The translations under genes were made by a program, and so were the position numbers. The notes below the pieces were generated by a model that ran no database searches, was not told the DNA's origin, and saw nothing but the letters and a program-made list of their open reading frames with translations. Below are positions 4,698 through 26,508 of a stretch of DNA of 32,000 bases, in pieces. Numbering within the stretch: position 1 is the stretch's first letter; every line of letters begins with the position of its first letter. This DNA comes from Candidatus Methanophagaceae archaeon (GTDB taxonomy: Archaea > Halobacteriota > Syntropharchaeia > Alkanophagales > Methanospirareceae), in assembly GCA_003194425.1 (NCBI GenBank), contig PQXB01000002.1, forward strand, positions 30,001 through 62,000. The letters run 5' to 3'.

Positions 4698-5807
4698 ATG
4701 GCGACAATCATCGGGAAGGTTTTGCGGGTTCTACCACTTAAAGAAGTTAGACCGAGACCAAAAGCAGAACGAACAGCAACAGAACGAACTGCAACAGAAC
4801 GAACTGCAGAGCAAGTAAGCGGTGGCGAGACTAAAAAAATCGTGGACCTCATAATTTCGGACGAGTTTGACTACAGAAAGGTCTCGTTTTGGGAGGAGTA
4901 CGCAGAACTCGTCGCTCGTGGCAAGATAAAGACTGGCGACGTGCTGAAGATTGAGAACGCTTGGATTTTAAGCAGCGAGAAGCAGGCAGCAGAGAAACGA
5001 GCGAACGTCGGGAGATTTACGAGGGTAACCAAAATCTCAAGAGAAATCGACGCTTTGAGCCGTGCCGACTACTTGAGGCAGAACCTTACCGTGCTGGCGG
5101 TTGCGAGACCCGAGAAGAGGGGGCGGGTCTGCGTCGCGGGTGTAACCGAGAACGGCGAGTGGGTGCGACCGCAGGACGTTTACGAAGCAGACACGCAAAA
5201 CTTCAAGAACCTCTGCGTCTCAAAAGTTTATCTCGACGCGTGGCGGGGCAGGCGGGCACGGAAGGAGGACAGGTTCTTCGTCTGCGGCGAGGGTGTGGGC
5301 AGGGAACTGAGCGAGGACGAGAAGCGAGCGTTCCTGGAGCAGAACCTCGACGACTCGGTAGACGCAGTCTTTAAGAGCGGAAAGCAGGGCGAGAGAAGGA
5401 GCTTAGGTCTGATAAAACCACGCATTCTGCGGGTCCACGAGGAGGTGGCGAAGTCGGGAAAAAGGGGAAAGGCAGAGGGAAGGGAAAAAGAGGGAAGGGG
5501 AAAAAGCGGGAAGGGGAAAAAAGAGAGAGTGAAAAGTCACGAACAGTACCTCCGCTTCAACTTCAAAGACGGCTCGGGCAGAACTTACCGCGGGTGGTCG
5601 TGCAGGTGCGACGACTTCTACAAAGCCTGGAACGACCTAAAGCAGAAGCACCGTTGGACTTACGGCTGGAGAATGCTCTGGCGTTTGCGGAGGAGCGAGA
5701 CTTACCTCGTAATTGGGCTCACTTTCTCGGACTACGGCGTTGAGCGGCTGGAGTACGGCGCATACCCAATGATCGTCGGGGTTCATTCAATTAAAAATCA
5801 GAAATAA
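4698..5807 (+). CDS. Hypothetical nucleic-acid-binding protein: N-terminal RPA-like OB fold plus a C-terminal domain resembling the 'dual OB' (DuOB) family
   Basis: 369 aa. The N-terminal pattern KKIVDLIISDEFDYRKVSFWEEYAELVARGKIKTGDVLKIENAWI is typical of OB folds. The second domain starts LTVLAVARPEKRGRVCVAGVTENGEWVRP. An ERTAT x3 repeat and a K/G/E-rich linker are present. Function is not assignable from sequence alone. Confidence 0.55.
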   Translation: MATIIGKVLRVLPLKEVRPRPKAERTATERTATERTAEQVSGGETKKIVDLIISDEFDYRKVSFWEEYAELVARGKIKTGDVLKIENAWILSSEKQAAEKRANVGRFTRVTKISREIDALSRADYLRQNLTVLAVARPEKRGRVCVAGVTENGEWVRPQDVYEADTQNFKNLCVSKVYLDAWRGRRARKEDRFFVCGEGVGRELSEDEKRAFLEQNLDDSVDAVFKSGKQGERRSLGLIKPRILRVHEEVAKSGKRGKAEGREKEGRGKSGKGKKERVKSHEQYLRFNFKDGSGRTYRGWSCRCDDFYKAWNDLKQKHRWTYGWRMLWRLRRSETYLVIGLTFSDYGVERLEYGAYPMIVGVHSIKNQK

Positions 5808-6604: not shown

Positions 6605-7618
6605 ATGAAAATAACGATAATCGGCGGGGCAGGAGGAATGGGAAAGTGGTTCGCCGGGTTTTTCAAGGCGAACGGTGCTGAAGTTCGGATCGTGGACAAG
6701 AGCGAGCAGACCGAGGCGGTCGCAAGACAAATCGGCGTGGAATTCTTGAAGACCGACATTTTGGGCGACGAAAAAGAAGAAAAAAAAGAAGAAGGAGAGA
6801 AGGAGGTTGCGGCGACCGAGGTGCTGCTCGTTTCGGTCCCGATTGACTTAACGAGCCGCGTGATTGAGCGAGTGGGACCGAGAATGCCGGCAGGCTCGCT
6901 GCTGATGGATTTAACTTCGGTGAAAAAAGCACCGGTTGCTGCGATGGAACGATTTGCGAGCAGCGGTGTTGAGATTCTCGGCACGCACCCCCTCTTCGGT
7001 CCTTCTGCAAAGAGCCTGCAGGGTCAGACTGTCATTCTCGTGCCTTCAACTTCAAGAAGCGGCTCAAGCGGTTTAGTGAGTTTGAAGGGTTTGAGGGGTT
7101 CGAGGGGTTCGAGGGGTTCGAGGGGTTTGAGGGGTTCGAGGGGTTCGAAATCCGAAAAAATCGCAGAGCTCTTCAAGAGTAAAGGGGCGAGGATTGAAGT
7201 CTTAACTGCGGCGGAGCACGACGAAATAATGGCAGTGGTTCAGGGGCTGACGCATTTTATCCTCATCGCTTTCGGCGTTGCTTTAAAAGACCTCGATTTT
7301 GAGGTCGCACGGGCGAGGCGGTTTATGAACCCGCAGTTCAAAATAATAACCGATTTCGTGGGCAGGCTCCTGCACCAAGACCCGCACCTTTACGCAACAA
7401 TTCAGACGAACTTCGAAATGGGCAGGATTCACGAGGCGTTTTTGACGACTGCCAGCAGGCTGCACGAGTTGGTCTTAGAAGGTAGAGTGGGTGAGTTAGT
7501 AAAAGAAATGCAGGAGGCGAAGAGGCATTTCGGGAACGCCGAGACCGAGCGAGCGTTCGCGGACTCGGAGCGGGTGTTAGAGCAGAAGCTAAAAGAGGGT
7601 GGAAAAAGAAAAAAATGA
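6605..7618 (+). CDS. tyrA: Prephenate dehydrogenase
   Basis: 337 aa. Rossmann motif MKITIIGGAGGMGKWFA, GTHPLFGP, helical C-terminal domain. Insert GLRGSRGSRGSRGLRGSRGS is encoded by a 9-bp repeat. Confidence 0.85.
   Translation: MKITIIGGAGGMGKWFAGFFKANGAEVRIVDKSEQTEAVARQIGVEFLKTDILGDEKEEKKEEGEKEVAATEVLLVSVPIDLTSRVIERVGPRMPAGSLLMDLTSVKKAPVAAMERFASSGVEILGTHPLFGPSAKSLQGQTVILVPSTSRSGSSGLVSLKGLRGSRGSRGSRGLRGSRGSKSEKIAELFKSKGARIEVLTAAEHDEIMAVVQGLTHFILIAFGVALKDLDFEVARARRFMNPQFKIITDFVGRLLHQDPHLYATIQTNFEMGRIHEAFLTTASRLHELVLEGRVGELVKEMQEAKRHFGNAETERAFADSERVLEQKLKEGGKRKK
7084..7147 (+). repeat. 9-bp in-frame tandem repeat (gaggggttc / gaggggttt) x7 inside tyrA
   Basis: Direct reading of 7084-7147. Encodes the (G/L)RGS repeats. 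Confidence 0.9.
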
Positions 7619-8508
7619 GGAGTTTCCTCGAGGAATATTCAAGGCTCGTTGGACTTCTTCTGCTCTCTTTCGTGTTTATTTTCCTTTTTTCAACCCCCTC
7701 AATGATTCTCGCTAAAACGATCACAACGATTGACACCGAGCTCTCGCGTGCGTCCGGGACTGCAACGCCTGTCCGAACGCTGTTGGATTTCGGAAACAAC
7801 GAGCACATTCAGGCTTTTCCGCGGCAGGTCGGCGAGTGGACTGCCGCAAACGATTACAACACGACGCAGGTTGCAGAGAGCCTGGGTGCAGAAGTGGTGC
7901 TCTTGCGTGCCTACAAGCATCCGAAATTCTATCAGCCCGTGATTTTTCTGATTGTGCAGTCCAACGCTCGTTCAAGCTTTCACCCCCCGATCGTCTGCTA
8001 CCCCGCGATGGGCTACGAGATTGAAGAAGAGGGCAAGGCGAAAATAGAGGTGCAGAATTTGAGCTGGGTGGAAAAACCGTTGTACGCTGCCTGGGCGGGG
8101 GAGGGGACTGGCGGTGAGAGGGCGTGGGCGGCGAGCCGAAATTTCAACGACACAATCTCCGCCAAGAAACTCGTCGTCGTAAAGAAAGCAGCGGCAGGCG
8201 AGGTAACCGAGCGACTGGTCGTGCTGTATTTTTATGTAAAAGAGAGCCCTTTTACTTCAGAGAACATTACCTTGGTCCGCGTCTCGGCACTCGCACCCAC
8301 TAAAGGCTCTTACGACGGCGTTCTCGGCGTAACAAAAGAGTTCTTGGGCGAGTCGGTGCCAAGAATGTTTGAACCGCGAAGAGAAGAGGAGCGGGTTATT
8401 TTTATTCTCCTCGATTTAGGTTCTGTGGTGGGTAAAGTGGCGGTTGGCTTGCTGCTCCTTCTCCCGCTGCTGCTCCTCTTTTACCCGCAAATTAAAAGAT
8501 TAATTTAA
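7615..8508 (+). CDS. Membrane-anchored EpsI-like (DUF3485, exosortase/archaeosortase-associated family) protein, putative
   Basis: 297 aa. N-terminal and C-terminal hydrophobic helices. FPRQVGEWTA...LGAEVVLLRAYK...PVIFLIVQSNARSSFHPPIVCYPAMGYEI matches my memory of the EpsI signature (P..iG.W...R.Y...h.P..C.p..G). The start overlaps the tyrA stop (ATGA). Confidence 0.5.
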   Translation: MRSFLEEYSRLVGLLLLSFVFIFLFSTPSMILAKTITTIDTELSRASGTATPVRTLLDFGNNEHIQAFPRQVGEWTAANDYNTTQVAESLGAEVVLLRAYKHPKFYQPVIFLIVQSNARSSFHPPIVCYPAMGYEIEEEGKAKIEVQNLSWVEKPLYAAWAGEGTGGERAWAASRNFNDTISAKKLVVVKKAAAGEVTERLVVLYFYVKESPFTSENITLVRVSALAPTKGSYDGVLGVTKEFLGESVPRMFEPRREEERVIFILLDLGSVVGKVAVGLLLLLPLLLLFYPQIKRLI

Positions 8509-8746: not shown

Positions 8747-9970
8747 TCAACTCCCGCCGTCCCACCGAAACCTCAGCACTGCAGCGATTCCGCCCAACCC
8801 TTTCAGTCGCTTTCCCGGCTCGAACTCAGTGCTGAAGACCACCACTCTCCCCCTCCCGCTCTCCACAGCCTTAAGAATTTTCTCTACCTCACGCCTTTCC
8901 TCCTCCGCCTCCTCCGCCTCCTCACCCTCTTCTTCGCCAGCGCTCAGTTTTTCGTCGCTGACCAGCAGGGTTTCAACCGCGCCGAACTGCAGAGCCTCCC
9001 AGACCTCTTCCTTCCCGTACACCGCCTTTCCGCCCTTCTCTTTACTTATTTCTTGCATTAACTTGTCCAGCAGTCGAACCTCTCGTGTTAGCCGCTCCTC
9101 GCTCTTCAGCCGTTCCACCGCCCCGCGTTTCAGAACCTCCAGGAAGCCCGAAGTTCCGACGCTCGACGCCTGCTCGGTTCTCGCTCGCTTGGCTAACTCC
9201 GCGTCCTTTTCCTTCAAGAACGAGAAAAAGTCGTTCTTCACGAACCCGGGACCTGCGATAATTATTGCCCCTCCTGCTGCTGCTCCTCCTCTGCCTCCTC
9301 TGGATGTGTAAAGAAAAGAGGTCTTCAACTGCTTTAGCACGGCGTTGAAAAAATCGCTTTTACTGCCTGCACCTGCGCTACCCTCTCCTTTCCCGGAGCC
9401 GAGCCTTATCGAGAAGAGTTCGTCTACGCCGTACTGCCTCACGACGCCCGCAACCGCCTCGCCCTCCTCAATCGTAACTACAACAACCTCGGGAGAAGCA
9501 ACCGCCGCCGCTCTCTCCGCCTCTCGCAGCCTCTTCAACTGGTGCTCCTTCCACTCCTTCACGACCGAGAGTTCTGTACCTTGCCCGATGTTTAGGGAGT
9601 GGTAAGACCCCAGTTCTGTCTCCGCTCCCCTCTCCGCCCCCACCTCGATCACGCCTTTCACACGCAGCCTGCGGGAGAACTTGTGAAATTCAACGCTCTC
9701 CACTCTCACGCCCAACCGAACAGGTTTCTTCTCGGTCTTGTCCGGGCGGATTTTGTCGGTCGCTCCTTCTAATCTGCGGTAGGAGAGGGCGAAGACGAGG
9801 TCGCCCGTCTCGATTAAGTGCTTGAGGTGCCACAAGTCGTCCAACGACTCTGGGATTAGCGAAATCTCCCCTGTTTTTCCTCCCCGCCCCTTTTCTCCTC
9901 CCCGCCCCTTTTCTCCTCCGTTCCCCCTTTCTCCTCCTCTCGTTTTTATCCTCTTTTTTAAGACCCGCAT
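8747..9970 (-). CDS. pelA: Pelota (Dom34-like mRNA surveillance / ribosome rescue factor)
   Basis: 407 aa. SLIPESLDDLWHLKHLIETGDLVFA N-domain, eRF1-like middle and C domains. N-terminal insert GGERGNGGEKGRGGEKGRGGKTG comes from an 18-bp repeat at 9873-9935. Confidence 0.9.
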   Translation of the reverse strand: MRVLKKRIKTRGGERGNGGEKGRGGEKGRGGKTGEISLIPESLDDLWHLKHLIETGDLVFALSYRRLEGATDKIRPDKTEKKPVRLGVRVESVEFHKFSRRLRVKGVIEVGAERGAETELGSYHSLNIGQGTELSVVKEWKEHQLKRLREAERAAAVASPEVVVVTIEEGEAVAGVVRQYGVDELFSIRLGSGKGEGSAGAGSKSDFFNAVLKQLKTSFLYTSRGGRGGAAAGGAIIIAGPGFVKNDFFSFLKEKDAELAKRARTEQASSVGTSGFLEVLKRGAVERLKSEERLTREVRLLDKLMQEISKEKGGKAVYGKEEVWEALQFGAVETLLVSDEKLSAGEEEGEEAEEAEEERREVEKILKAVESGRGRVVVFSTEFEPGKRLKGLGGIAAVLRFRWDGGS

Positions 9971-10089
9971 CTTGAGAAGAAGAGATATTTTGTAGCAAAA
10001 AACGCAAAAAAATCAAAAACCTTTTAAACAACATTTTTCTTACATTTTTGTCAAAAGTAAAAATAAAAAATTAGGAGGTGAGGGGAAAA
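9971..10089. promoter_or_regulatory. AT-rich divergent promoter region (pelota <-> cytochrome 1) with TATA-like boxes and a strong SD for cytochrome 1
   Basis: TATA-like ccttttaaaca (about 10019-10031) and aaagtaaaaataaaaaatt (about 10052-10071). GGAGGTG at 10074-10080, 9 nt before ATG 10090. Confidence 0.45.
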
Positions 10090-10908
10090 ATGAACACGAA
10101 CAAATTGGTTTTGTTGGGAGTAGCAGTCGTAGCAATCGGGATATTCGCACTGCCGAGCACGGTCTCGCTCTTCGCAGGTCAGCACGTCTGGTACGACATT
10201 AGCCAACCGGAAAATAATGTTCCGTGTATAAAGTGCCACGCAGATATTTATGGAGAGTTTCTGATGTCGGGTGCTCACCAAACATTAGCTGGCGGAGAGT
10301 CCAGTAATAGCACGAATAGTACTACCTATGATTCAAATAAGGCCTGCGCCGCGTGCCACCGAGTTGACTCTGTTGATTACAAATTCGCAAGTGGAGATGG
10401 CGGCAGCTTCACTCGAGGTAACAAAGCACACGCAGCCGCTACAATCGCGTGTATGGCATGCCATGAATTTGGTTCTACGGCAGAAGACAAGGGACCGGCA
10501 GCGGGAGGATTTGCACAGCCGTCATACGGTGTTGGATTTGAAGGACAACAATACCACTACACCGATGATATGCATAAAGGGGAACACGCAGCACACAACC
10601 CGTTTATTGCACAAGCGATAAACTCAGAGATGCTCGAAGATTCCAACGAGGCGTGCTTAGCCTGCCACACCTACATCCCAGTCAAGATAAACTGGAGCCA
10701 CGCGAGAAGCCTGGAGTTCAACATCGAGCCAGAAATAAATACAACCGACTGGAGCCACGACTGGAACGTAACCGAGTGGGGCATAAATACAAGCAGCTAC
10801 GCCAATGCAACAGTCTGGGGAAACACAACAGGATATGGAAACACGACTTACTACAAAAACTGGCCAGGCGACATAGACGAGATATACGAGAACGAAAACA
10901 GCGATTGA
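10090..10908 (+). CDS. Tetrahaem c-type cytochrome, secreted or membrane-anchored, sequon-rich
   Basis: 4 CxxCH (CIKCH, CAACH, CMACH, CLACH). N-terminal hydrophobic segment LVLLGVAVVAIGIFALPSTVSLFAGQHVWYD. 9 N-x-S/T sequons, 7 of them in the last ~75 aa. ATG 10090 is preferred over the track's GTG at 10078 because of SD spacing. Confidence 0.9.
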   Translation: MNTNKLVLLGVAVVAIGIFALPSTVSLFAGQHVWYDISQPENNVPCIKCHADIYGEFLMSGAHQTLAGGESSNSTNSTTYDSNKACAACHRVDSVDYKFASGDGGSFTRGNKAHAAATIACMACHEFGSTAEDKGPAAGGFAQPSYGVGFEGQQYHYTDDMHKGEHAAHNPFIAQAINSEMLEDSNEACLACHTYIPVKINWSHARSLEFNIEPEINTTDWSHDWNVTEWGINTSSYANATVWGNTTGYGNTTYYKNWPGDIDEIYENENSD

Positions 10909-10928
10909 GCAGCAGCAGTGCAAGACGA

Positions 10929-10988
10929 AGGTAACCCTTCCCTTTCTTCTCTTCGGGGCTGGGGTTACCTACTTTTTTATTTTTTTAG
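10929..10988 (+). terminator. Stem-loop plus T-run downstream of cytochrome 1
   Basis: Perfect 9-bp inverted repeat aggtaaccc (10929-10937) / gggttacct (10962-10970), followed by acttttttatttttttag. Confidence 0.55.
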
Positions 10989-11042
10989 TTTTAACACACA
11001 AAATAAACACACAAAACAAAAAAAGAGCAAGAAAGAGCCAAA

Positions 11043-11810
11043 ATGCAAGCCTTCGCAGAAGCGGTAATATTAAGCCTCGTGGTCAGTGTGTTCGTAGCAT
11101 CTCTCTTGTTCTTCTTCTACTCGACTGCAGTAAACGGCACCGAACTGCCTCTCCGTCTCTACACCCAAGTCAAGAGAAAATACCGCGAGCATTCAAGGAA
11201 GAAGAGAGTAAAAGAGCGGCTCGAAGAATTCAAGACCGCCTCGGGCAGCAGACCGTCCCTTCTCGTCTCTTCGCTCCTCTTCTCGCTCTTCCTGCTCGTC
11301 GTCTTTGCTCTACTATTTAAACTCGCGTTCTTCTCCGCCGTCACCTCGGACAGCATGCGACCCACATTTGAACGCGGTGACCTCGTGGCAATGCAGAAGA
11401 TTCAGACCACGCCAAAAGAGGGCGACATAATTATGTTTGAGCGACCTGATTTCCTGCTTCCTTTTATTCATCGCGTCGTCGCAGTGACCGAGGAGAAGGG
11501 AGGCAAGCGGAAAGTGAGGACAAAAGGGGACGCTTGCGAGAGAGTAGATCCTTGGGTTCTGCCCGAGGGAGCGGTCGAGGCGAAAGCCGTGCAGTTAGGC
11601 GGACGAGCAGTGGTTCTAAAAGATGTCGGCAATTATTTCATCCTCGACGCCCGAGAGAGGCGAATTGGCAGGTACGGACTGGAATACACTTTTATGAAGA
11701 ACATTTTTTTTATTTTGCGGATGTACGGCTACGCGTTCTGCGTCCTTGCAATCATTGGTTATTTGGTCTTGACGATCAGGGAGATGCAGACGAGGAAGAG
11801 GAGGGGGTAA
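11043..11810 (+). CDS. Signal peptidase I, ER/archaeal (SEC11/SipW-like, Ser-His) type, with an extra N-terminal TM plus basic loop and a C-terminal TM
   Basis: 255 aa. Box B SDSMRPTF, box C GDLV, box D HRVV (His rather than the bacterial Lys), box E TKGDACERVD. Hydrophobic segments at about aa 5-27, 71-97 and 215-243. Basic loop KRKYREHSRKKRVKERL. Confidence 0.85.
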   Translation: MQAFAEAVILSLVVSVFVASLLFFFYSTAVNGTELPLRLYTQVKRKYREHSRKKRVKERLEEFKTASGSRPSLLVSSLLFSLFLLVVFALLFKLAFFSAVTSDSMRPTFERGDLVAMQKIQTTPKEGDIIMFERPDFLLPFIHRVVAVTEEKGGKRKVRTKGDACERVDPWVLPEGAVEAKAVQLGGRAVVLKDVGNYFILDARERRIGRYGLEYTFMKNIFFILRMYGYAFCVLAIIGYLVLTIREMQTRKRRG

Positions 11811-11814
11811 AAAG

Positions 11815-12600
11815 ATGAAAGGATTCTTCTTAATCGCGGTTGCAGTAGTCGCGGTCGGCATCTTCGTGCTTCCGAGCACGGTCTCGTTCTTCACCGAGCA
11901 GCACAACTGGTACGACCTTTCTCCAGCGACACATGTGCAAGCGAGCTGGGGAAGAAATGATGTGCCGTGCGAGAAATGTCATACTGATGTTGAAGGACAG
12001 ATGCAGAGTCCTGAGAACGGTGCGCACCGCGATTTAACCTGCGCTGATTGTCACAGGGCTCCTTTTACCGAATATAATTACGCTCGCGGGAACTACATTT
12101 GCGTAAACAAATTTGGAATCCCCAAATGGCAAGGCACAAAACCAGGTAAAGAAGCACACGCCGCATCCGTGGTCGCGTGTACGGACTGTCACACTGCTAA
12201 TGACACCGAGATACACCCGCGTGACCCTGAATATGTTACAAGGTGTAACGACTGCCATCACTCTCCGCCGAAAGAAATTGAAGATAAATGGAAATGGATG
12301 ATCGCAGGCGGTTTCGGACTGACCGGTAGAACGAACGACACAGGCGAGAAGGAGGCACACGAGAAGTTCCTGCACGACGCGATTGAGAACGCCTCCTTGA
12401 AAGGTTCGAACGAGGCTTGCATCGCCTGCCACACTGCTACCTCGGTTACAGTCACATATTTAGTGCCGCAAGGCTACAAAATTAAGTCAAGCAGGAAGTG
12501 GGAGGGCGACGAGGCTTGCGGCGAGTGGGAAGTTAATTTCTCGTACTGCAACTTTACCCGCGTGGAAGGAGCGAGCGGAGGAGCGAGCGGCGATGATTAA
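11815..12600 (+). CDS. Pentahaem c-type cytochrome, paralogue of cytochrome 1
   Basis: 5 CxxCH (CEKCH, CADCH, CTDCH, CNDCH, CIACH). N-terminus FLIAVAVVAVGIFVLPSTVSFFTEQHNWYD. Starts 4 nt after the peptidase stop. Confidence 0.9.
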   Translation: MKGFFLIAVAVVAVGIFVLPSTVSFFTEQHNWYDLSPATHVQASWGRNDVPCEKCHTDVEGQMQSPENGAHRDLTCADCHRAPFTEYNYARGNYICVNKFGIPKWQGTKPGKEAHAASVVACTDCHTANDTEIHPRDPEYVTRCNDCHHSPPKEIEDKWKWMIAGGFGLTGRTNDTGEKEAHEKFLHDAIENASLKGSNEACIACHTATSVTVTYLVPQGYKIKSSRKWEGDEACGEWEVNFSYCNFTRVEGASGGASGDD

Positions 12601-13744
12601 AATCAAATACAAATACAAGGTCGCGGTGCTCGTCTTGGTTGTTCTTACTGCGTCTTTAGCCTGTTCTGTCTTCTCTTCTTCTCTCTTTGAGGGGCAGCAC
12701 ACTTGGTACGACCTCTCTGCGCCCGAAAACGATGTGTCCTGCTACAAGTGCCATAAAAATATCAGAGCAGAGTTTGACGAGACGCCCTCGACGCCCCTGC
12801 CTCCGGGAAGCGGTGTACCGCACAAGGACAAATCGTGTGAGTACTGCCACAGGAGCGAGCCGGGCGTAACCTACGCGAACGGCTCTGGTAAGTACTCGGA
12901 GCCTGGTGAAGAAGCCCACGCCGCCTCTGTTCCCTTGTGCCAGCAGTGCCACGAGCACGAGAGCAAAGACCTCGCGGCTGCAGATGAGTCGCACAAGCCG
13001 TTGAACCGGGGTGGAGGGAGTGGCTCTGCCGCAGAGTCTAACGAGGCTTGCGTCTTGTGCCACACGGGCTTTGACAAGAGCATTGACTTTACGAGACCGC
13101 TCTATGTGGAGTACGAGATTAAGAATGTCAGCGGAACTTGGTTAGTTCATAATTTCAACCTCGGTCCGAGCAGCACCGCCACAGTAAACCTGACCCCACC
13201 CGGCGAGAGGCACACTTGGAAGAACGCGTCCGCGGTCAACTGCTTTGACTGCCACTCCGACATCAAGAACGCACTCAAGAACGGTGGGCACGTGCCGAGC
13301 AGTGGAAAAACTCTTTCAGGCACCGCAGTTTCAGGACACAAAGGCAGGCGACACAACTTTAGTAGAACCAGCACCGGCGTGAGCGTCGAAGACTGTAAGC
13401 CCTGCCACCGACCGAGTTTGTCTGACTTTGGAGCAGGCTACAACCACTTGGAAGCACGGCTCGACTACCACGCCGCGACGACCGAGCACTGCTACGACTG
13501 CCACTACAACGGAACTGCAACCGCGTTCAACGAAACTGGCTCAGGCTGTGTAGAGTGCCACAACATTTTACGAACTCCTGGAAACCACACCGAAATATTG
13601 AACAGCACCTTCTCCCAGAATTTCTGCGGGTACAAAATTGACAAGGTCTGCGTCGGCTGCCACCTGCCTGGTCCTGGCACCAGCGTGCCGTTTTCCGACA
13701 GGCACTTCACGATTTACACCGAGCCGAACGCCACAATTTTATGA
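12593..13744 (+). CDS. Nonahaem c-type cytochrome: shared tetrahaem core plus a 5-haem C-terminal extension
   Basis: 9 CxxCH (CYKCH, CEYCH, CQQCH, CVLCH, CFDCH, CKPCH, CYDCH, CVECH, CVGCH). N-terminus VAVLVLVVLTASLACSVFSSSLFEGQHTWYD. 8-nt overlap with the upstream cytochrome (gcgATGATTAA). 10 sequons. Confidence 0.9.
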   Translation: MIKIKYKYKVAVLVLVVLTASLACSVFSSSLFEGQHTWYDLSAPENDVSCYKCHKNIRAEFDETPSTPLPPGSGVPHKDKSCEYCHRSEPGVTYANGSGKYSEPGEEAHAASVPLCQQCHEHESKDLAAADESHKPLNRGGGSGSAAESNEACVLCHTGFDKSIDFTRPLYVEYEIKNVSGTWLVHNFNLGPSSTATVNLTPPGERHTWKNASAVNCFDCHSDIKNALKNGGHVPSSGKTLSGTAVSGHKGRRHNFSRTSTGVSVEDCKPCHRPSLSDFGAGYNHLEARLDYHAATTEHCYDCHYNGTATAFNETGSGCVECHNILRTPGNHTEILNSTFSQNFCGYKIDKVCVGCHLPGPGTSVPFSDRHFTIYTEPNATIL

Positions 13745-13805: not shown

Positions 13806-15173
13806 TTAGGCGAACATTACCCCCATTTCTTTGCTCTTCGCACTCAGACCCAGACACGACCGCTGCTCCTCCCCCAGAATCTTTTTTATCGCGTGCACGA
13901 ATTCTGCAGTTCCCACTGCACTCTTGTTCCTTTTCACAGCGAGCATTCCCGCCTCTGTGGAGATTGCTTTTATCTCAGCACCCGTGGCGTTCTCGGTAAG
14001 CGCCGCTAAATTCTCAAAATTCACGCCCTTCTCCAATTTCATCCCTGCCTTGTGCGTGTGAATTCTGAATATTTCCAGCCTCGCTTCCCGGTCTGGCACA
14101 GGAATTTCAATGACGCGGTCGAACCTCCCAGGGCGGAGCAGAGCAGGGTCAAGAATGTCAGGTCTGTTCGTCGCCCCAATTATCCGAACCTCCCCTCTCG
14201 GGTCGAAGCCGTCAATCTCGGCTAAAAGCTGCAACATCGTTCGCTGCACTTCTCGCTCGCCCGAAGTCCCGTCCTCGGTTCTGCGAGCCGCTACCGCGTC
14301 CAACTCGTCAATAAAAAGAATCGAAGGTGCTTTCTCCTTCGCCAGCGCAAAAAGTTCCCGCACCAGCCTCGCACCTTCGCCGATGTATTTCTGCACCAAC
14401 TCCGAGCCGACGACGCGGATAAAAGTGGCAGAAGTCCGATTCGCAACAGCCTTCGCAAGCAGCGTCTTTCCAGTGCCGGGCAGACCTGTAAGAAGCACAG
14501 CCTTCGGCGGCACCACTCCCACTCGCTCAAACCGCTCGGGCGCAGTCAGCGGCAACTCCACCACTTCCCGCACTTCTTCTACCTGCTCCCTCAGCCCCCC
14601 AATCATCTTGTAGTCCACGCACGGCGTTTCAATCACTTCCATTCCGTGCACCGACGGGTCCTTCGCAGAGGGGAGCACGCTAACCACCGCCAGCGACTGC
14701 TGACTCATTCCGACTTGCGCGCCGGGTGCGAGTTCTCTTGGGTCTACGAGTTGGGGAGCGTAAGTCACGACGAAGCGCGGTCCTGTGCTGCTCCTCACGA
14801 CCACTCGGTTGTCTGCTTCTGCTCCGTCGGTCCCCTCAATTCTCTCCACAACCGTGCCAACGATCAACGGCGGAGAAGACAACTTCTCTAACTCGGTCTG
14901 CAGCTTTTTTATCTCCCGCTCGTACCGCACCCGCATACTTTCGTAATATCGCCACTCTCGCTCTATTTTCCCCAACCGCGCCCTCAACTTGTAGTTCGCC
15001 TCCTCCAACTGCCGCATTTTATCCTGCAAGTGCCCGAAGTAGTTCTCGCCACACGGTTTGCCGCACGATTCTCCGCTGCCTCTCGTGCCTCCGCTGCCTC
15101 TCGTGCCTGCACCTGCACTTGCTTCTGCACCTGTGCTTGAGTTTATGCTTGTGCTTGCTTTCATCTTGCCCAA
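13806..15173 (-). CDS. pan: Proteasome-activating nucleotidase (AAA+ ATPase, Rpt-like)
   Basis: 455 aa. Coiled-coil N-terminus, OB region, Walker A GLPGTGKTLLAKAVA, Walker B ILFIDELDA, GATNRPDILDPALLRPGRFDR. Low-complexity N-terminus with an 18-bp repeat at 15072-15107. Confidence 0.92.
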   Translation of the reverse strand: MGKMKASTSINSSTGAEASAGAGTRGSGGTRGSGESCGKPCGENYFGHLQDKMRQLEEANYKLRARLGKIEREWRYYESMRVRYEREIKKLQTELEKLSSPPLIVGTVVERIEGTDGAEADNRVVVRSSTGPRFVVTYAPQLVDPRELAPGAQVGMSQQSLAVVSVLPSAKDPSVHGMEVIETPCVDYKMIGGLREQVEEVREVVELPLTAPERFERVGVVPPKAVLLTGLPGTGKTLLAKAVANRTSATFIRVVGSELVQKYIGEGARLVRELFALAKEKAPSILFIDELDAVAARRTEDGTSGEREVQRTMLQLLAEIDGFDPRGEVRIIGATNRPDILDPALLRPGRFDRVIEIPVPDREARLEIFRIHTHKAGMKLEKGVNFENLAALTENATGAEIKAISTEAGMLAVKRNKSAVGTAEFVHAIKKILGEEQRSCLGLSAKSKEMGVMFA

Positions 15174-23239: not shown

Positions 23240-24105
23240 TTTTTACCCTCTCTTTTAGTCAAGGTTTTTTCTTTAGAGAAAAGGTTGTTAGAGAAAAAGT
23301 TGAGAGCGGACTCGGTCCAGATTGTCAGCCTGCCGGGGTGCGTCCCGGGTGCGAGCAGTTCGGCGTTCAACTCCGCCACACGAGCTACCTCCACGCCCGG
23401 CAGATTCTTCGCACCTGTCTTTATTTTCGCCTCTGCCACCGTTCCTGCCGCCGCTTCCACCTCTGCCTCTGCCACCGCCTCTTTTCCAGAAACGACGATT
23501 AAAACGCTCTTTCTACGCTTGTACCTTCTGCCGCGCATTTTTCCTCGCCCTGCCCGCACTTTCCTCTCCTTCGCACGGAGAAGGTCTTCCCAGACGCCGG
23601 CGGACTTTAAAAAATCCTCTACCTCCGCTGTTTTTCCCAAGCCTGCGAGCGAGTCTTCCACCACCAACGGCAGTTCAACTTCTTCGCCGAATTTGTGCCC
23701 TCTGCTTCTCACGATTTCGGAGTCTGCGGTGGCTGCAACGGCAGACCGCACCGCCCTCCGCCGCTCTTTCTTGTTTATTTTCTGCTTCAAAACTTTTTCG
23801 GTTTTTGGCGGGTGTGCTCGTCTTCCGCCGACAGTCTGCGGGGCGCGTGCTGCTCGGTTGCCTGTTTTTATGCGAGCAACTCTTGAGACGCCTCTGCCGA
23901 CGCCCCAGCTCTCAGCCGAGGTTCTCTTCCCTGCTAAAATGTCAGAGCCTTTTGGCTGAAACCTGTGCGACTGCACTGCCAGCACCGCCCGTTTTATCAG
24001 GTCGGGCCTGTACTCCTCGCTAAAGACCGAGGGCAGCGCCACCTCCCGCACAGCCTTCCCCGACAAGTCCAAGACTTTGACTCTCCCTTCTGCCTCTTTT
24101 ATCAT
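23230..24105 (-). CDS. rpl4: 50S ribosomal protein uL4
   Basis: 291 aa. YRPDLIKRAVLAVQSHRFQPKG...GKRTSAESWGVGRGVSRV. Confidence 0.9.
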   Translation of the reverse strand: MIKEAEGRVKVLDLSGKAVREVALPSVFSEEYRPDLIKRAVLAVQSHRFQPKGSDILAGKRTSAESWGVGRGVSRVARIKTGNRAARAPQTVGGRRAHPPKTEKVLKQKINKKERRRAVRSAVAATADSEIVRSRGHKFGEEVELPLVVEDSLAGLGKTAEVEDFLKSAGVWEDLLRAKERKVRAGRGKMRGRRYKRRKSVLIVVSGKEAVAEAEVEAAAGTVAEAKIKTGAKNLPGVEVARVAELNAELLAPGTHPGRLTIWTESALNFFSNNLFSKEKTLTKREGKKWD

Positions 24106-24120
24106 CTCTTCTCTTTTCTT

Positions 24121-25149
24121 TTATTTTTTGCGAATATAAATAATCTCCGGCACGCTCGGTTTAGAGTGCGATCTTATCGAGTGCGAGAGTCTTACAAGCC
24201 GCTTCTTCGGTCCTGGAACGCTCCCTTTCACCAAAATAAACCCGTTCCGCACCTCCCCGTACTTCACGAAGCCACCCTTTGGCGTTACCTCCTCGCCGTT
24301 CTCCCCGATTTTCAGGACTTGCTTGTTGTACTCGGTTCGCTGCTGGTAGCCGGTCTGCCCGAGTTGAGGGATTTTCCAGCGCACCCGCCGCGGCTTCCAA
24401 GCCCCAATGCAGCCCACGTGGCGACCTCTTCCCGACCGCCGCGCCTTTGCATTCTGAATCATCACACCCCACCGCTTCACGGGTCCCTGCGTGCCTTTCC
24501 CAGTCGTTACTGCGGTAACATCCACAAAGTCGCCGTCTTTGAAGACCTCGCCGATTTTTAACTCCTTTCCAAGCACTTCTCTCGCGTACTCAAGGTCTTT
24601 CTCAACCTCGACGCCCCCCCCGCTCATCTTTATTTCCATCGTCTCGTGCTTCTTCTTCGGCACCCCGCTCACGAGTTTTGGCTGCGTTGAAATTAGCAAA
24701 GTCACGCTAAAATCGTGCGCGTTGCCCTTGACGCTCGCACTTTTGATTAGGTCTGCCACCTTCTCAAAACCCGCTTCAGCCCCTGCGCCTGCCTCTGCGC
24801 CTGCCTCTGCGCCTGCCCCTGCGCCTGCCCCTGCGCCTGCCTCTGCTCTCACTTCGGTTACCACCCGCTTTCCGTAGCTGGTATTTTTGTAAAGCCGAAG
24901 ACCTTCTACCCTCACAGGCGGCGTCTCGATTACAGTCGCAGGAACGGAAATCTCCATTCCTTTTGTCAGGCTGTGCGGGGCGTTGTCTGCTAAAATGAGG
25001 TGCGTCATTCCGGCTTTGTAGCCCGCAAAACCCTGAATCCTTCTGCCTGCCGCTCTCTCTTCTCTTTTGATCCTGCAAGTCTCACTTCTCGCCCGCGTTC
25101 TCGGTGAGAAGGCGAGTGAGCCTCGTCTTGGTCGGTGTCGTTTGGACAT
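24121..25149 (-). CDS. rpl3: 50S ribosomal protein uL3
   Basis: 342 aa. RHRPRRGSLAFSPRTRA...GFAGYKAGMTH...TGKGTQGPVKRWG. (A/E)G insert. Confidence 0.95.
   Translation of the reverse strand: MSKRHRPRRGSLAFSPRTRARSETCRIKREERAAGRRIQGFAGYKAGMTHLILADNAPHSLTKGMEISVPATVIETPPVRVEGLRLYKNTSYGKRVVTEVRAEAGAGAGAGAGAEAGAEAGAGAEAGFEKVADLIKSASVKGNAHDFSVTLLISTQPKLVSGVPKKKHETMEIKMSGGGVEVEKDLEYAREVLGKELKIGEVFKDGDFVDVTAVTTGKGTQGPVKRWGVMIQNAKARRSGRGRHVGCIGAWKPRRVRWKIPQLGQTGYQQRTEYNKQVLKIGENGEEVTPKGGFVKYGEVRNGFILVKGSVPGPKKRLVRLSHSIRSHSKPSVPEIIYIRKK
24777..24848 (-). repeat. 12-bp in-frame tandem repeat x6 (gcgcctgcc[c/t]ct on +) inside rpl3
   Basis: Direct reading. Encodes [26 protein letters not shown]. Confidence 0.9.
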
Positions 25150-25250
25150 TTTCTTGCGTAAATTTTTTGTTATTTTAAATTAGCATTAAATATAAAAACA
25201 TTAAAAATTTAGAAACTTTGTAGTTTGTAGATGAAAGGAGACGAAGAAGA
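25150..25250. promoter_or_regulatory. AT-rich divergent promoter region (rpl3 operon <-> HsdR_N gene)
   Basis: TATA-like tattttaaatt (about 25170-25181) about 25 nt from the rpl3 ATG. attaaatataaaaaca (about 25184-25200) upstream of the + gene. ggag 10 nt before ATG 25251. Confidence 0.45.
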
Positions 25251-26402
25251 ATGGATTTCATCGACCAGATAAAAGCACTGTCTGATCAGATTTCTAAAGA
25301 ATTGGAGCATTTAGAGACGGAGGAGGCGACGAAGCACGCCCTTGTTCTGCCGTTCATTAACGCGCTGGGTTACAATGTCTTTAATCCTTGGGAGGTGGTG
25401 CCGGAATTCACCTGCGATGTCGGGAAAAAGAAGGGTGAGAAAGTGGATTACGCGTTGATGAAAGCCGGAAAACCAATTATGCTTTTTAAGTGCAAGTCTG
25501 CGAACGCTGACCTGGGAAAGGAACACGCAGACCAACTTTACAGATATTTCTCGGTTACCGAGGTAAAAGTCGGGGTTCTCACGAACGGGGTCGTCTACAA
25601 ATTTTACAGCGACCTCGAAGAGACGAACAAAATGGACGCAAAACCGTTTCTTGAACTTGACCTGCTTGACTTGAAGGAGGTGGTTGTAGAGGAGTTGAAA
25701 CGGTTCAGGAAGGAGTCTTTTGACTTGGGTGCGGTTGTCTCTGCGGCGAGCGAGTTGAAATACTCGAAAGAAATAAAGAGGATTCTGGGAGAGGAACTCA
25801 ATTCGCCCTCCGACGAGTTTGTTAAGTTCTTTACGAAGCAGGTTTACTCGGGAAGGGTGACAAAAACGGCTCTGGAAAAGTTTAGGGAAATTATTCACCA
25901 AGCGTTTAAACAGTTCGTCAACGAAAAGATCAGCGACCGACTGAAATCGGCGTTGGAGAAGGAGCAAGAGCAAGAAGGTGCTGCAGGTGTAGCAGAAGAG
26001 CGCGGTGCGGAGGGCGGGAGGAGTGAAGAAAAGAAAGAGAAAGAAGAGGGTCTTGTCACGACCGAAGAGGAAGTAGAGGGTTTTTTTATTGTCCGTGCGA
26101 TTTTGCGTGAGACTACTGAGCCCGAGAGAGTTATTTTGAAGGACCGGAAAAACTACTGCAACGTTCTGCTGGACAACAATATTAGAAGACCGATTTGCAG
26201 GTTCTACTTCAACACCCGGCAGAAATATGTAAGTTTCTTTGACGCGGAGAAAAAGGAGGAGAAGGTGGCGGTAGAGAACTTGAGTGAGATTTACAACTAC
26301 GCTGAGAGGCTTAAAGCAACGGTCGACTACTACAAGGGCTACGAGGGAAGTGGCGTACCTGAAGCTAGTCCAGAATCAGAAAAAGAAAACAAAAACATTT
26401 AA
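25251..26402 (+). CDS. Type I restriction enzyme R N-terminal (HSDR_N-like, PD-(D/E)XK fold) domain protein of unknown function
   Basis: 383 aa. ETEEATKHALVLPFINALGYNVFNPWEVVPEF...GEKVDYALMKAGKPIMLFKCKS...QLYRYF...VGVLTNGVVYKFY. C-terminal module EEEVEGFFIVRAILRE...NYCNVLLDNNIRRPICRFYFN recalls a widespread standalone family. No methylase or specificity genes nearby. Confidence 0.7.
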   Translation: MDFIDQIKALSDQISKELEHLETEEATKHALVLPFINALGYNVFNPWEVVPEFTCDVGKKKGEKVDYALMKAGKPIMLFKCKSANADLGKEHADQLYRYFSVTEVKVGVLTNGVVYKFYSDLEETNKMDAKPFLELDLLDLKEVVVEELKRFRKESFDLGAVVSAASELKYSKEIKRILGEELNSPSDEFVKFFTKQVYSGRVTKTALEKFREIIHQAFKQFVNEKISDRLKSALEKEQEQEGAAGVAEERGAEGGRSEEKKEKEEGLVTTEEEVEGFFIVRAILRETTEPERVILKDRKNYCNVLLDNNIRRPICRFYFNTRQKYVSFFDAEKKEEKVAVENLSEIYNYAERLKATVDYYKGYEGSGVPEASPESEKENKNI

Positions 26403-26425
26403 GCCAAAATTTTCAAAACAGATTT

Positions 26426-26508
26426 GCGGGGGTTGCCAAGAGGACAAAGGCGCAGCGTTGAGGTCGCTGTCCCGTAGGGGTTCGAGGGTTCAAATCCCTC
26501 CCTCCGCA
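26426..26508 (+). tRNA. tRNA-Leu (anticodon GAG), class II, no encoded CCA
   Basis: GCGGGGGTTGCCAAGAGGACAAAGGCGCAGCGTTGAGGTCGCTGTCCCGTAGGGGTTCGAGGGTTCAAATCCCTCCCTCCGCA. Acceptor stem with one G-U pair, anticodon stem CAGCG/CGCTG with loop TTGAGGT, T-arm GAGGG-TTCAAAT-CCCTC. Confidence 0.9.

Follow-up and report, generated by a model that had tools for sequence, protein, structure and literature searches.

A conserved N-terminal module of AvECN-family cytochromes and a linked Sec11/SipW-type signal peptidase in an ANME-1 genome: candidate elements of cleavage-triggered nanowire assembly

The DNA analysed here, a stretch of 32,000 nt from Candidatus Methanophagaceae archaeon (GenBank assembly GCA_003194425.1, contig PQXB01000002.1, positions 30,001 to 62,000; hereafter the window, to which coordinates refer unless another locus is named), contains three genes, designated cyt1, cyt2 and cyt3, that encode multihaem c-type cytochromes, and a signal peptidase gene located between cyt1 and cyt2. 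In all three cytochromes, a hydrophobic helix leads into P-x-T-x-S and then into (L/F)-F-x-x-Q-H-x-W-Y-D. The cytochromes are related to AvECN (UniProt F2KMU8, PDB 8E5G), the Archaeoglobus veneficus extracellular cytochrome nanowire reportedly described by Baquero et al. in 2023. The best explanation of their common N-terminus, which we regard as moderately probable, is that the modules of these three paralogous AvECN-family cytochromes of ANME-1 (Methanophagales; anaerobic methanotrophic archaea, ANME) function in a peptidase-triggered assembly. The means by which archaea build conductive cytochrome filaments for interspecies electron transfer is an open question in the field, above all for the uncultured methane-oxidising ANME. 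Here, one ANME-1 genome brings together a clear orthologue of the sole euryarchaeal nanowire subunit solved so far, two larger paralogues that have this arm at their N-terminus as well, and a peptidase, catalytically intact by sequence, from a subfamily that accompanies such cytochromes.

The proposed module would have two parts. The first would be a Sec-type signal peptide with unusually conserved hydrophobic (h-) and C-terminal (c-) regions (G-x-F-A-L-P-x-T-x-S), and the second the start of the mature protein, (L/F)-F-x-G-Q-H-x-W-Y, termed the arm, with a histidine that would serve as the distal axial ligand of a c-type haem. The precursors would be exported and have their haems attached while still tethered by the signal peptide, and the Sec11/SipW-type peptidase encoded between the cytochrome genes would cut after T-x-S, six residues ahead of the histidine. 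The short N-terminal arm so released would, in the polymer, probably ligate a haem of the neighbouring subunit, in parallel with the release of the TasA donor strand by SipW. cyt1 would be the likely major filament subunit, and the peptidase, cyt2 and cyt3 would be products of a tightly packed downstream operon.

Relationship to AvECN

When searched against the PDB with phmmer, cyt1 matches chain 8e5g_A over residues 5-264 (E 1.5e-68, about 49% identity), and this full-length homology to the 8E5G chain places it in the AvECN-type nanowire subunit family. cyt2 and cyt3 match the same chain in two stretches each (E 8.8e-23 and 4.9e-24, respectively) that cover the N-terminal half and the last haem region. 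Judged by sequence, cyt1 is the AvECN orthologue and cyt2 and cyt3 are paralogues. As is characteristic of the family, cyt1 has four CXXCH motifs (C50, C90, C125 and C193) and four conserved distal histidines, and cyt2 and cyt3 have extra haems. Database searching identified 258 relatives in Archaeoglobaceae, Geoglobus, Methanophagales, Syntrophoarchaeum and related lineages.

Conservation of the N-terminal module

The N-termini of cyt1, cyt2 and cyt3 read exactly as quoted in the original prediction, and the identical cyt1/cyt2 15-mer noticed there, CCGAGCACGGTCTCG, has only two copies in the window, at 10153-10167 and 11872-11886. Shuffling of the window gives an expectation of 0 such matches, although the identity is less surprising than this suggests because both copies encode P-S-T-V-S. 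Through the first CXXCH, the cyt1/cyt2, cyt1/cyt3 and cyt2/cyt3 pairs are identical at 30/48, 23/50 and 24/48 positions, respectively, versus 60/169, 53/169 and 41/146 in the remainder (46-63% up to the first CXXCH and 28-36% beyond). Among 121 family members, mean pairwise identity is 0.79 in the P..S c-region and 0.83 in the L-F-x-G-Q-H-x-W-Y arm, with 0.54 in the h-region and 0.45 in the rest of the mature protein, CXXCH motifs not counted. The consensus (I/V)-G-x-F-A-L-P-(S/N/Q)-T-(V/M)-S-L-F-(A/S)-G-Q-H-x-W-Y is near-invariant in 120 homologues with 29-58% overall identity to cyt1 (and in one with 97%), one h-region glycine is 93% conserved, and the N-terminal alignment shows no variation at F, H, W and Y of the arm and hardly any at G and Q. 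Conservation of c- and h-regions at or above the level of the mature protein is unusual for generic signal peptides, and the c-region and arm values, set against 0.45 for the rest, bear out the earlier argument that this N-terminus is more conserved than a plain export signal would be.

A 45-position profile of the N-terminus, ending before the first CXXCH, was searched against 1.84 billion cluster representatives and matched 190 of them at E <= 0.001, always within residues 1 to ~50. CXXCH motifs, mostly four or five, are present in 130 of the 147 newly listed matches; the 17 without them are all 33-81 aa long and most are evident fragments. One CXXCH-bearing match, P0339, is a low-complexity false positive. 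The only PDB entry with the module is 8E5G, and a literature search with the motif strings returned a single, unrelated paper. The module is limited to multihaem cytochromes and is always N-terminal, and is therefore part of the cytochrome domain rather than a general sorting tag for cargo.

The residue four positions past the arm histidine alternates between N (38%) and D (37%) across the family, and is D in cyt1 (10183-10200 in the window), cyt2 and cyt3. Where N is followed by (I/L)-S, as in the W-Y-N-I-S of AvECN, it forms an N-glycosylation sequon just behind the arm.

Predicted cleavage site

Residue frequencies around the junction of helix and arm were obtained from 201 unique sequences, with positions counted from the arm histidine. 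Proline occupies H-10 in 98%, threonine H-8 in 93%, and serine, alanine and threonine H-6 in 78%, 16% and 3%, respectively. Past the predicted cut, H-5 is L or M in 92%, H-4 is F in 100%, H-2 is G in 96% and H-1 is Q in 97%; the histidine (100%) is followed by W/F in 99% and Y in 87%. Taking H-6 as position -1 gives a textbook type I box, with Pro at -5, T at -3 (93%) and S/A/T at -1 (97%), and the cut before (L/F)F that had been proposed from the small -3 and -1 residues holds family-wide. The same register is found in distant cytochromes encoded beside related peptidases, as P-S-A-M-A↓K-F-T-G-Q-H, V-F-T↓L-F-A-R-Q-H and S-S-G↓L-F-G-L-Q-H. The only alternative, a cut after H-3, is excluded, because cyt2 and cyt3 have T and E at this position and F and L, respectively, two residues earlier. 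The predicted cut, just before L-F-x-G-Q-H and six residues ahead of the histidine, is well supported bioinformatically. It would generate mature proteins that start L-F-A-G-Q-H (cyt1), F-F-T-E-Q-H (cyt2) and L-F-E-G-Q-H (cyt3), with the histidine at position 6.

Sequences and family statistics agree with a Sec-type, class I signal peptide, in having a basic n-region, an h-region of ~15-20 residues and small uncharged residues at -1 and -3, and AlphaFold2 gives a confident helix for residues 7-28 of cyt1 (numbered from a GTG start). A class III (type IV pilin-like) signal was rejected by inspection, as the n-regions MNTNK-LVLL, MKGFF-LIAV and KYKYK-VAVL have no G or A at -1, and so was a lipobox, S-L-A-C, within the cyt3 signal peptide (A-S-L-A-C, 12653-12667). 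The latter probably occurs by chance, as the cysteine is absent from those N-termini of 9-haem cytochromes that were seen beside the peptidase at other loci. A hairpin over the cyt2 copy of the 15-mer, for which no cyt1 counterpart was seen by eye, was also taken as chance.

A second type of 4-haem cytochrome is encoded upstream of peptidase homologues at loci L080 (170-766), L084 (2618-3304) and L096 (974-1624). It keeps a signal-like ..VGLFALPGTV.. but continues L-Y-I-E-E.., without a Q-H-x-W-Y arm, so that signal part and arm are separable.

The arm histidine

Exactly four histidines outside CXXCH motifs are invariant or nearly so in the family, namely H36, in the Q-H motif, H67 (98%), H118 and H173 (GTG-start numbering). 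Four bis-histidine c-type haems need four distal ligands, so that H36 is almost certainly one of these, and the segment from this histidine onward therefore belongs to the mature protein. Haem ligation was among the roles that the original prediction had offered for a conserved N-terminus, and the histidine count is in accord with this. In AvECN, three of the four haems take the distal histidine from another subunit, as reviewed in PMC12203936. Modelling of known nanowires found 0, 1 or 3 inter-subunit histidine ligands, and all filaments except OmcZ needed parts of extra subunits to complete ligation (bioRxiv 10.1101/2023.06.12.544705). In AvECN, the arm histidine is rather likely to be among the three inter-subunit ligands.

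The signal peptidase and its genomic association

The peptidase matches TIGR02228 (archaeal signal peptidase I) with 60.3 bits, versus a cut-off of 51.85, and PF10502. Its score against NF046067, the equivalog model of Bacillus subtilis SipW, is 33.7 bits and so falls below the cut-off of 190. S104 (in S-D-S-M-x-P), H143-R144 and G-D163 are conserved and align with the catalytic Ser, His and Asp motifs of SEC11A and SEC11C, and an AlphaFold2 model (predicted local distance difference test, pLDDT, 72.5; 85-93 in the catalytic core) was ranked by Foldseek closest to human SEC11C and SEC11A (7P2Q, 7P2P), with Streptococcus SipA (PDB 4N31) third. By alignment and model, the enzyme is of the Ser-His type (endoplasmic reticulum (ER)/archaeal/SipW; S26B) with the Ser, His and Asp residues intact, and its TIGR02228 score and its Ser/His/Asp residues, with His rather than Lys, place it with the archaeal/ER type I signal peptidases. 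The Ser-His type is the norm for archaeal signal peptidases. Less usual are an additional helix at the N-terminus, a linker on the cytoplasmic side that is long and basic, and the conserved segment G-N-Y-F-I-L...Y-G-x-E-Y ahead of the C-terminal helix. Its close relatives make up a compact subfamily, ~245-255 residues in length, and the protein is 100% identical to one from a Methanophagales metagenome-assembled genome annotated as 'signal peptidase I [Methanophagales archaeon]'.

At 42 metagenomic loci with a close homologue of this peptidase, a cytochrome gene with the strict motif is present within 1.1 kb in 35 cases, mostly overlapping the peptidase stop codon, and one with a variant motif in three more (38/42). 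Two of the other four loci (L113, L115, L116 and L118) end at the peptidase. The order peptidase, 4-6-haem cytochrome, 9-haem cytochrome recurs across loci, and more distant peptidases adjoin cytochromes with the variants L-F-A-G-Q-H-N-F-Y-D or A-K-F-T-G-Q-H. An association of this module with SipW-like peptidases, as first proposed, is therefore present in the form of a Sec11/SipW-type subfamily tightly linked to such cytochromes, and makes the enzyme a candidate for the predicted cut. Chadwick et al. 2022 (PMC9012536) describe linkage between a signal peptidase and the genes of multihaem cytochromes in ANME, Geoglobus and Ferroglobus. They also report that ANME-1 lineages without cytochromes are without the peptidase, which speaks against a housekeeping role.

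In A. veneficus, the maker of AvECN filaments, an orthologous peptidase of the same architecture (42% identity) is encoded at an unrelated locus. This locus (L159, 5738-7995) has an upstream gene for a 642-aa protein, with a faint CARDB match, and one for a 108-aa protein of unknown function. No annotated cytochrome-family genes are present within 8 kb of the A. veneficus peptidase gene, the DNA itself not having been scanned for CXXCH.

Alternative explanations

Several observations weigh against a peptidase-triggered assembly. At 77 genomic loci with motif-bearing cytochromes, with flanks of up to 10 kb and many contigs shorter, the peptidase is present in the flanks of only 8 (7/28 for ANME-1, Syntrophoarchaeum or Methanosarcinales-type loci and 1/33 for Archaeoglobi) and absent from 69, which does not agree with the original prediction that the motif might be restricted to cytochromes beside SipW-like peptidases. 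Motif-bearing cytochrome genes often occur as tandem arrays, with two to five genes per array and 3-6 haems, and the AvECN gene, with no peptidase nearby, has as its neighbour a motif-bearing paralogue with more CXXCH motifs. Processing therefore does not require adjacency. An N-terminal histidine shortly before the first CXXCH may be an intramolecular ligand, as in cytochromes c7, and the AlphaFold2 model of cyt1, built from a 55-sequence alignment without haems, has a pLDDT of 56.6 and no Foldseek match. It is possible, if somewhat unlikely, that the module is an ordinary Sec signal followed by an intramolecular haem ligand, with Q-H-x-W-Y reflecting the pocket of the first haem and the peptidase having a general or load-sharing function for numerous secreted cytochromes and no role in polymerisation. 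The histidine has to ligate a haem on any reading, most motif-bearing cytochromes lack a neighbouring peptidase, and Chadwick et al. (PMC9012536) interpret the peptidase simply as the remover of multihaem cytochrome signal sequences. This is countered by the conservation of the c- and h-regions, including the glycine, at or above that of the mature protein, by the inter-subunit position of three of the four AvECN distal histidines (PMC12203936) and by a peptidase subfamily that is almost never found apart from such cytochromes. Retention of the helix as an uncleaved signal anchor, at least in cyt2 and cyt3, that would hold the cytochromes at the surface, with the G, P, T and S residues conserved for helix packing, is improbable. 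The helix is predicted as one long, confident element and no other anchor or C-terminal sorting signal is present in cyt1, cyt2 or cyt3, but the filament to which cyt1 is orthologous comes off cells by shearing as a soluble polymer (PMC12954529). P(-5)/T(-3)/S(-1), with A-x-A in variants, is moreover a classical type I cleavage box, and a signal peptidase that is catalytically intact, by sequence, is translationally coupled to cyt2 and cyt3.

The original prediction had likened the signal to the SipW-cognate (TasA/TapA-type, TIGR04088) class. The loose pattern T-x-small↓x-F fits, as does the location of a SipW-type peptidase gene (11043-11810) between substrate genes, the genomic setting of this class, but TIGR04088 (cut-off 19 bits) gave no match at E <= 10 to the N-termini of cyt1, cyt2, cyt3 or AvECN, whereas TasA, the positive control, scored 40.3 bits. 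The peptidase is archaeal/ER-type and not a SipW equivalog (33.7 versus 190 bits), and the module occurs only on cytochromes, so that membership of this signal class is very improbable. Scarcely credible, finally, is that the N-terminal likeness stems not from selection but from a recent duplication or gene conversion inside the cluster. The identical 15-mer would be in keeping with such an event, but many synonymous differences separate the three N-terminal DNAs outside the 15-mer, and the module has been retained by Archaeoglobi, ANME-1, Syntrophoarchaeum and Methanosarcinales-related archaea at 29-58% overall identity; this family-wide conservation rules out gene conversion as the sole cause.

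For peptidase-triggered assembly, the AvECN family, its inter-subunit histidine ligation and a cytochrome-linked signal peptidase in ANME were already known. New are the family-wide cleavage box that abuts the histidine arm, the restriction of the module to multihaem cytochromes, the near-obligate location of the peptidase subfamily beside such cytochromes, and the module on 5- and 9-haem paralogues in an ANME-1 cassette. Together, these suggest a cleavage-gated, possibly mixed, assembly, and the structural role surmised in the original prediction is probably right. A more far-reaching version, which we consider unlikely, is that the module and a putatively dedicated Sec11-type peptidase constitute a cleavage-triggered polymerisation switch, with the 4-, 5- and 9-haem paralogues in one heteropolymeric nanowire. 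As these forms carry the same histidine arm, the paralogues could plug in as base, tip or branching subunits and, if so, ANME-1 would have a heteropolymeric nanowire wired to larger cytochromes. The predicted cut, P-x-T-x-S↓L-F-x-G-Q-H, makes the maturation step testable, and the signature [LM]-F-x-G-Q-H-x-[WF]-Y at residues ~25-40 provides a tool with which to search metagenomes for nanowire-type cytochromes.

Gene organization

The cassette, in the order cyt1–peptidase–cyt2–cyt3 (Table 1), is flanked by a pelota gene (8747-9970, minus strand) and by the gene for PAN, the proteasome-activating ATPase (13806-15173, minus strand), its downstream neighbour. The remaining genes in the window are housekeeping genes and include those for ribosomal proteins, topoisomerase, FtsZ and two tRNA-Leu. 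Translation of cyt1 starts at the ATG at 10090, rather than at the GTG at 10078, as the homologues begin MNTNK and a Shine-Dalgarno sequence, GGAGGTGA, is located upstream of the ATG. The cyt2 start is 4 nt past the peptidase stop, and cyt3 overlaps the end of cyt2 by 8 nt. After the cyt1 stop, a 10-bp G+C-rich stem followed by a U run separates cyt1 from the peptidase operon; as the whole-stretch z-score is only -1.44, and with just a short sub-stem caught by a consensus scan, its reading as a terminator is only suggestive. With its own strong ribosome-binding site and this terminator-like hairpin, cyt1 is likely the major filament subunit, and the layout would fit a highly expressed major subunit accompanied by a lower-expressed operon for maturation and accessory proteins (peptidase, cyt2 and cyt3). 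The G+C content of 10001-11000, the cyt1 region, is 0.466, versus 0.51-0.56 in neighbouring stretches.

Table 1. Features of the cytochrome–peptidase cassette and their positions in the window
Feature	Position	Strand	Description and basis
cyt1	10090..10908	+	Tetrahaem c-type cytochrome, AvECN orthologue, probably major subunit; 4 CXXCH
cyt1 predicted signal peptide	10090..10167	+	M1-S26, ends L-P-S-T-V-S, includes 15-mer; AlphaFold2 helix, conserved P/T/S at -5/-3/-1; predicted cleavage
cyt1 arm	10168..10194	+	L-F-A-G-Q-H-V-W-Y, His codon 10183-10185; alignment conservation
cyt1 first haem-binding motif	10225..10239	+	C-I-K-C-H; sequence
Terminator-like stem-loop	10929..10985	+	GGUAACCCCU...GGGGUUACC, then U6-A-U7; sequence and fold, putative function
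Type I signal peptidase	11043..11810	+	Sec11/SipW-type (S26B, Ser-His), three predicted membrane helices; TIGR02228, PF10502, Foldseek
cyt2	11815..12600	+	Pentahaem AvECN-family paralogue; 8e5g_A match, 5 CXXCH
cyt2 predicted signal peptide	11815-11886	+	M1-S24; then arm F-F-T-E-Q-H-N-W-Y, 11887-11913
cyt3	12593..13744	+	Nonahaem paralogue, AvECN-like core and 5-haem C-terminal extension; 8e5g_A match, 9 CXXCH
cyt3 predicted signal peptide	12593-12682	+	M1-S30; then arm L-F-E-G-Q-H-T-W-Y, 12683-12709

Other features of the window

A gene at 7615-8508 (plus strand), ~1.6 kb upstream of the cassette and separated from it by the pelota gene, encodes a 297-aa membrane protein with an exosortase-associated EpsI-like domain (PF11984/DUF3485, E 1.5e-8), with EpsI models scoring below their cut-offs. 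It overlaps the stop codon of a prephenate dehydrogenase gene and has no adjacent archaeosortase gene. Low-complexity inserts rich in Gly, Glu, Arg and Lys are present in housekeeping proteins, for example in pelota (GGERGNGGEKGRGGEKGRGG) and at the N-terminus of PAN (GAEASAGAGTRGSGGTRGSG), and similar inserts, ERTATERTATERTA and GKRGKAEGREKEGRGKSGKGKK, are found in an unassigned 369-aa protein (4698-5807, plus strand). Several ribosomal proteins also appear long, such as S19 with 154 aa and L22 with 179 aa. Cumulative GC skew has a minimum near 25 kb (about 24000-26500), where a minus-strand ribosomal operon (L3 ends at 25149) meets plus-strand genes (from 25251); the skew tracks gene orientation.

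Comparison with known systems

All four CXXCH motifs, the four additional histidines and the N-terminal module (which reads LPSTTSLFLGQHMWY in AvECN) are common to cyt1 and AvECN, whose host is an Archaeoglobus rather than ANME-1. Gene context differs too, as cyt1 shares a cassette with the signal peptidase and the 5- and 9-haem paralogues, whereas the A. veneficus peptidase orthologue is encoded elsewhere in the genome. Proteolytic maturation by a neighbouring protease before nanowire assembly is known for OmcZ and OzpA; OzpA, however, is subtilisin-like and removes a C-terminal domain, and these protein families are unrelated to those described here. In the OmcS and OmcE filaments of Geobacter sulfurreducens, a histidine of one subunit ligates a haem of the next (PMC12954529; PMC12203936).

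The peptidase that Chadwick et al. report with an '8x TMH' protein (PMC9012536) appears, from its description and phyletic range, to belong to the same family. There it is located beside CcmF2 and the giant ANME MHC-B and is given a generic interpretation, whereas no '8x TMH' gene is adjacent here; neither a conserved cleavage box with a histidine arm nor a link to AvECN-type subunits is known to be described there. Streptococcus pyogenes SipA (PDB 4N31) likewise has a signal-peptidase fold, is encoded inside a filament gene cluster and is essential for pilus polymerisation. SipA is a chaperone without the catalytic residues, whereas Ser, His and Asp are kept in the peptidase described here.

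The gene arrangement resembles the B. subtilis tapA-sipW-tasA and archaeal Tafi/TafD loci, in which a Ser-His type I peptidase is also encoded amid secreted, filament-forming substrates. Cleavage by SipW exposes a TasA donor strand that is used in polymerisation. TafD is the signal peptidase of the Tafi loci, and its cleavage yields the N-terminus for polymerisation (PMC12337348). In contrast to both loci, the substrates here are multihaem cytochromes with a signal that TIGR04088 does not match, and the peptidase has an additional N-terminal membrane helix and a conserved C-terminal segment. The presumed role of the N-terminus is haem ligation, rather than the β-strand donation of TasA. Although class membership is rejected, the functional analogy to tapA-sipW-tasA and the Tafi loci stands, in that the predicted cut would produce the N-terminus that itself enters into assembly.

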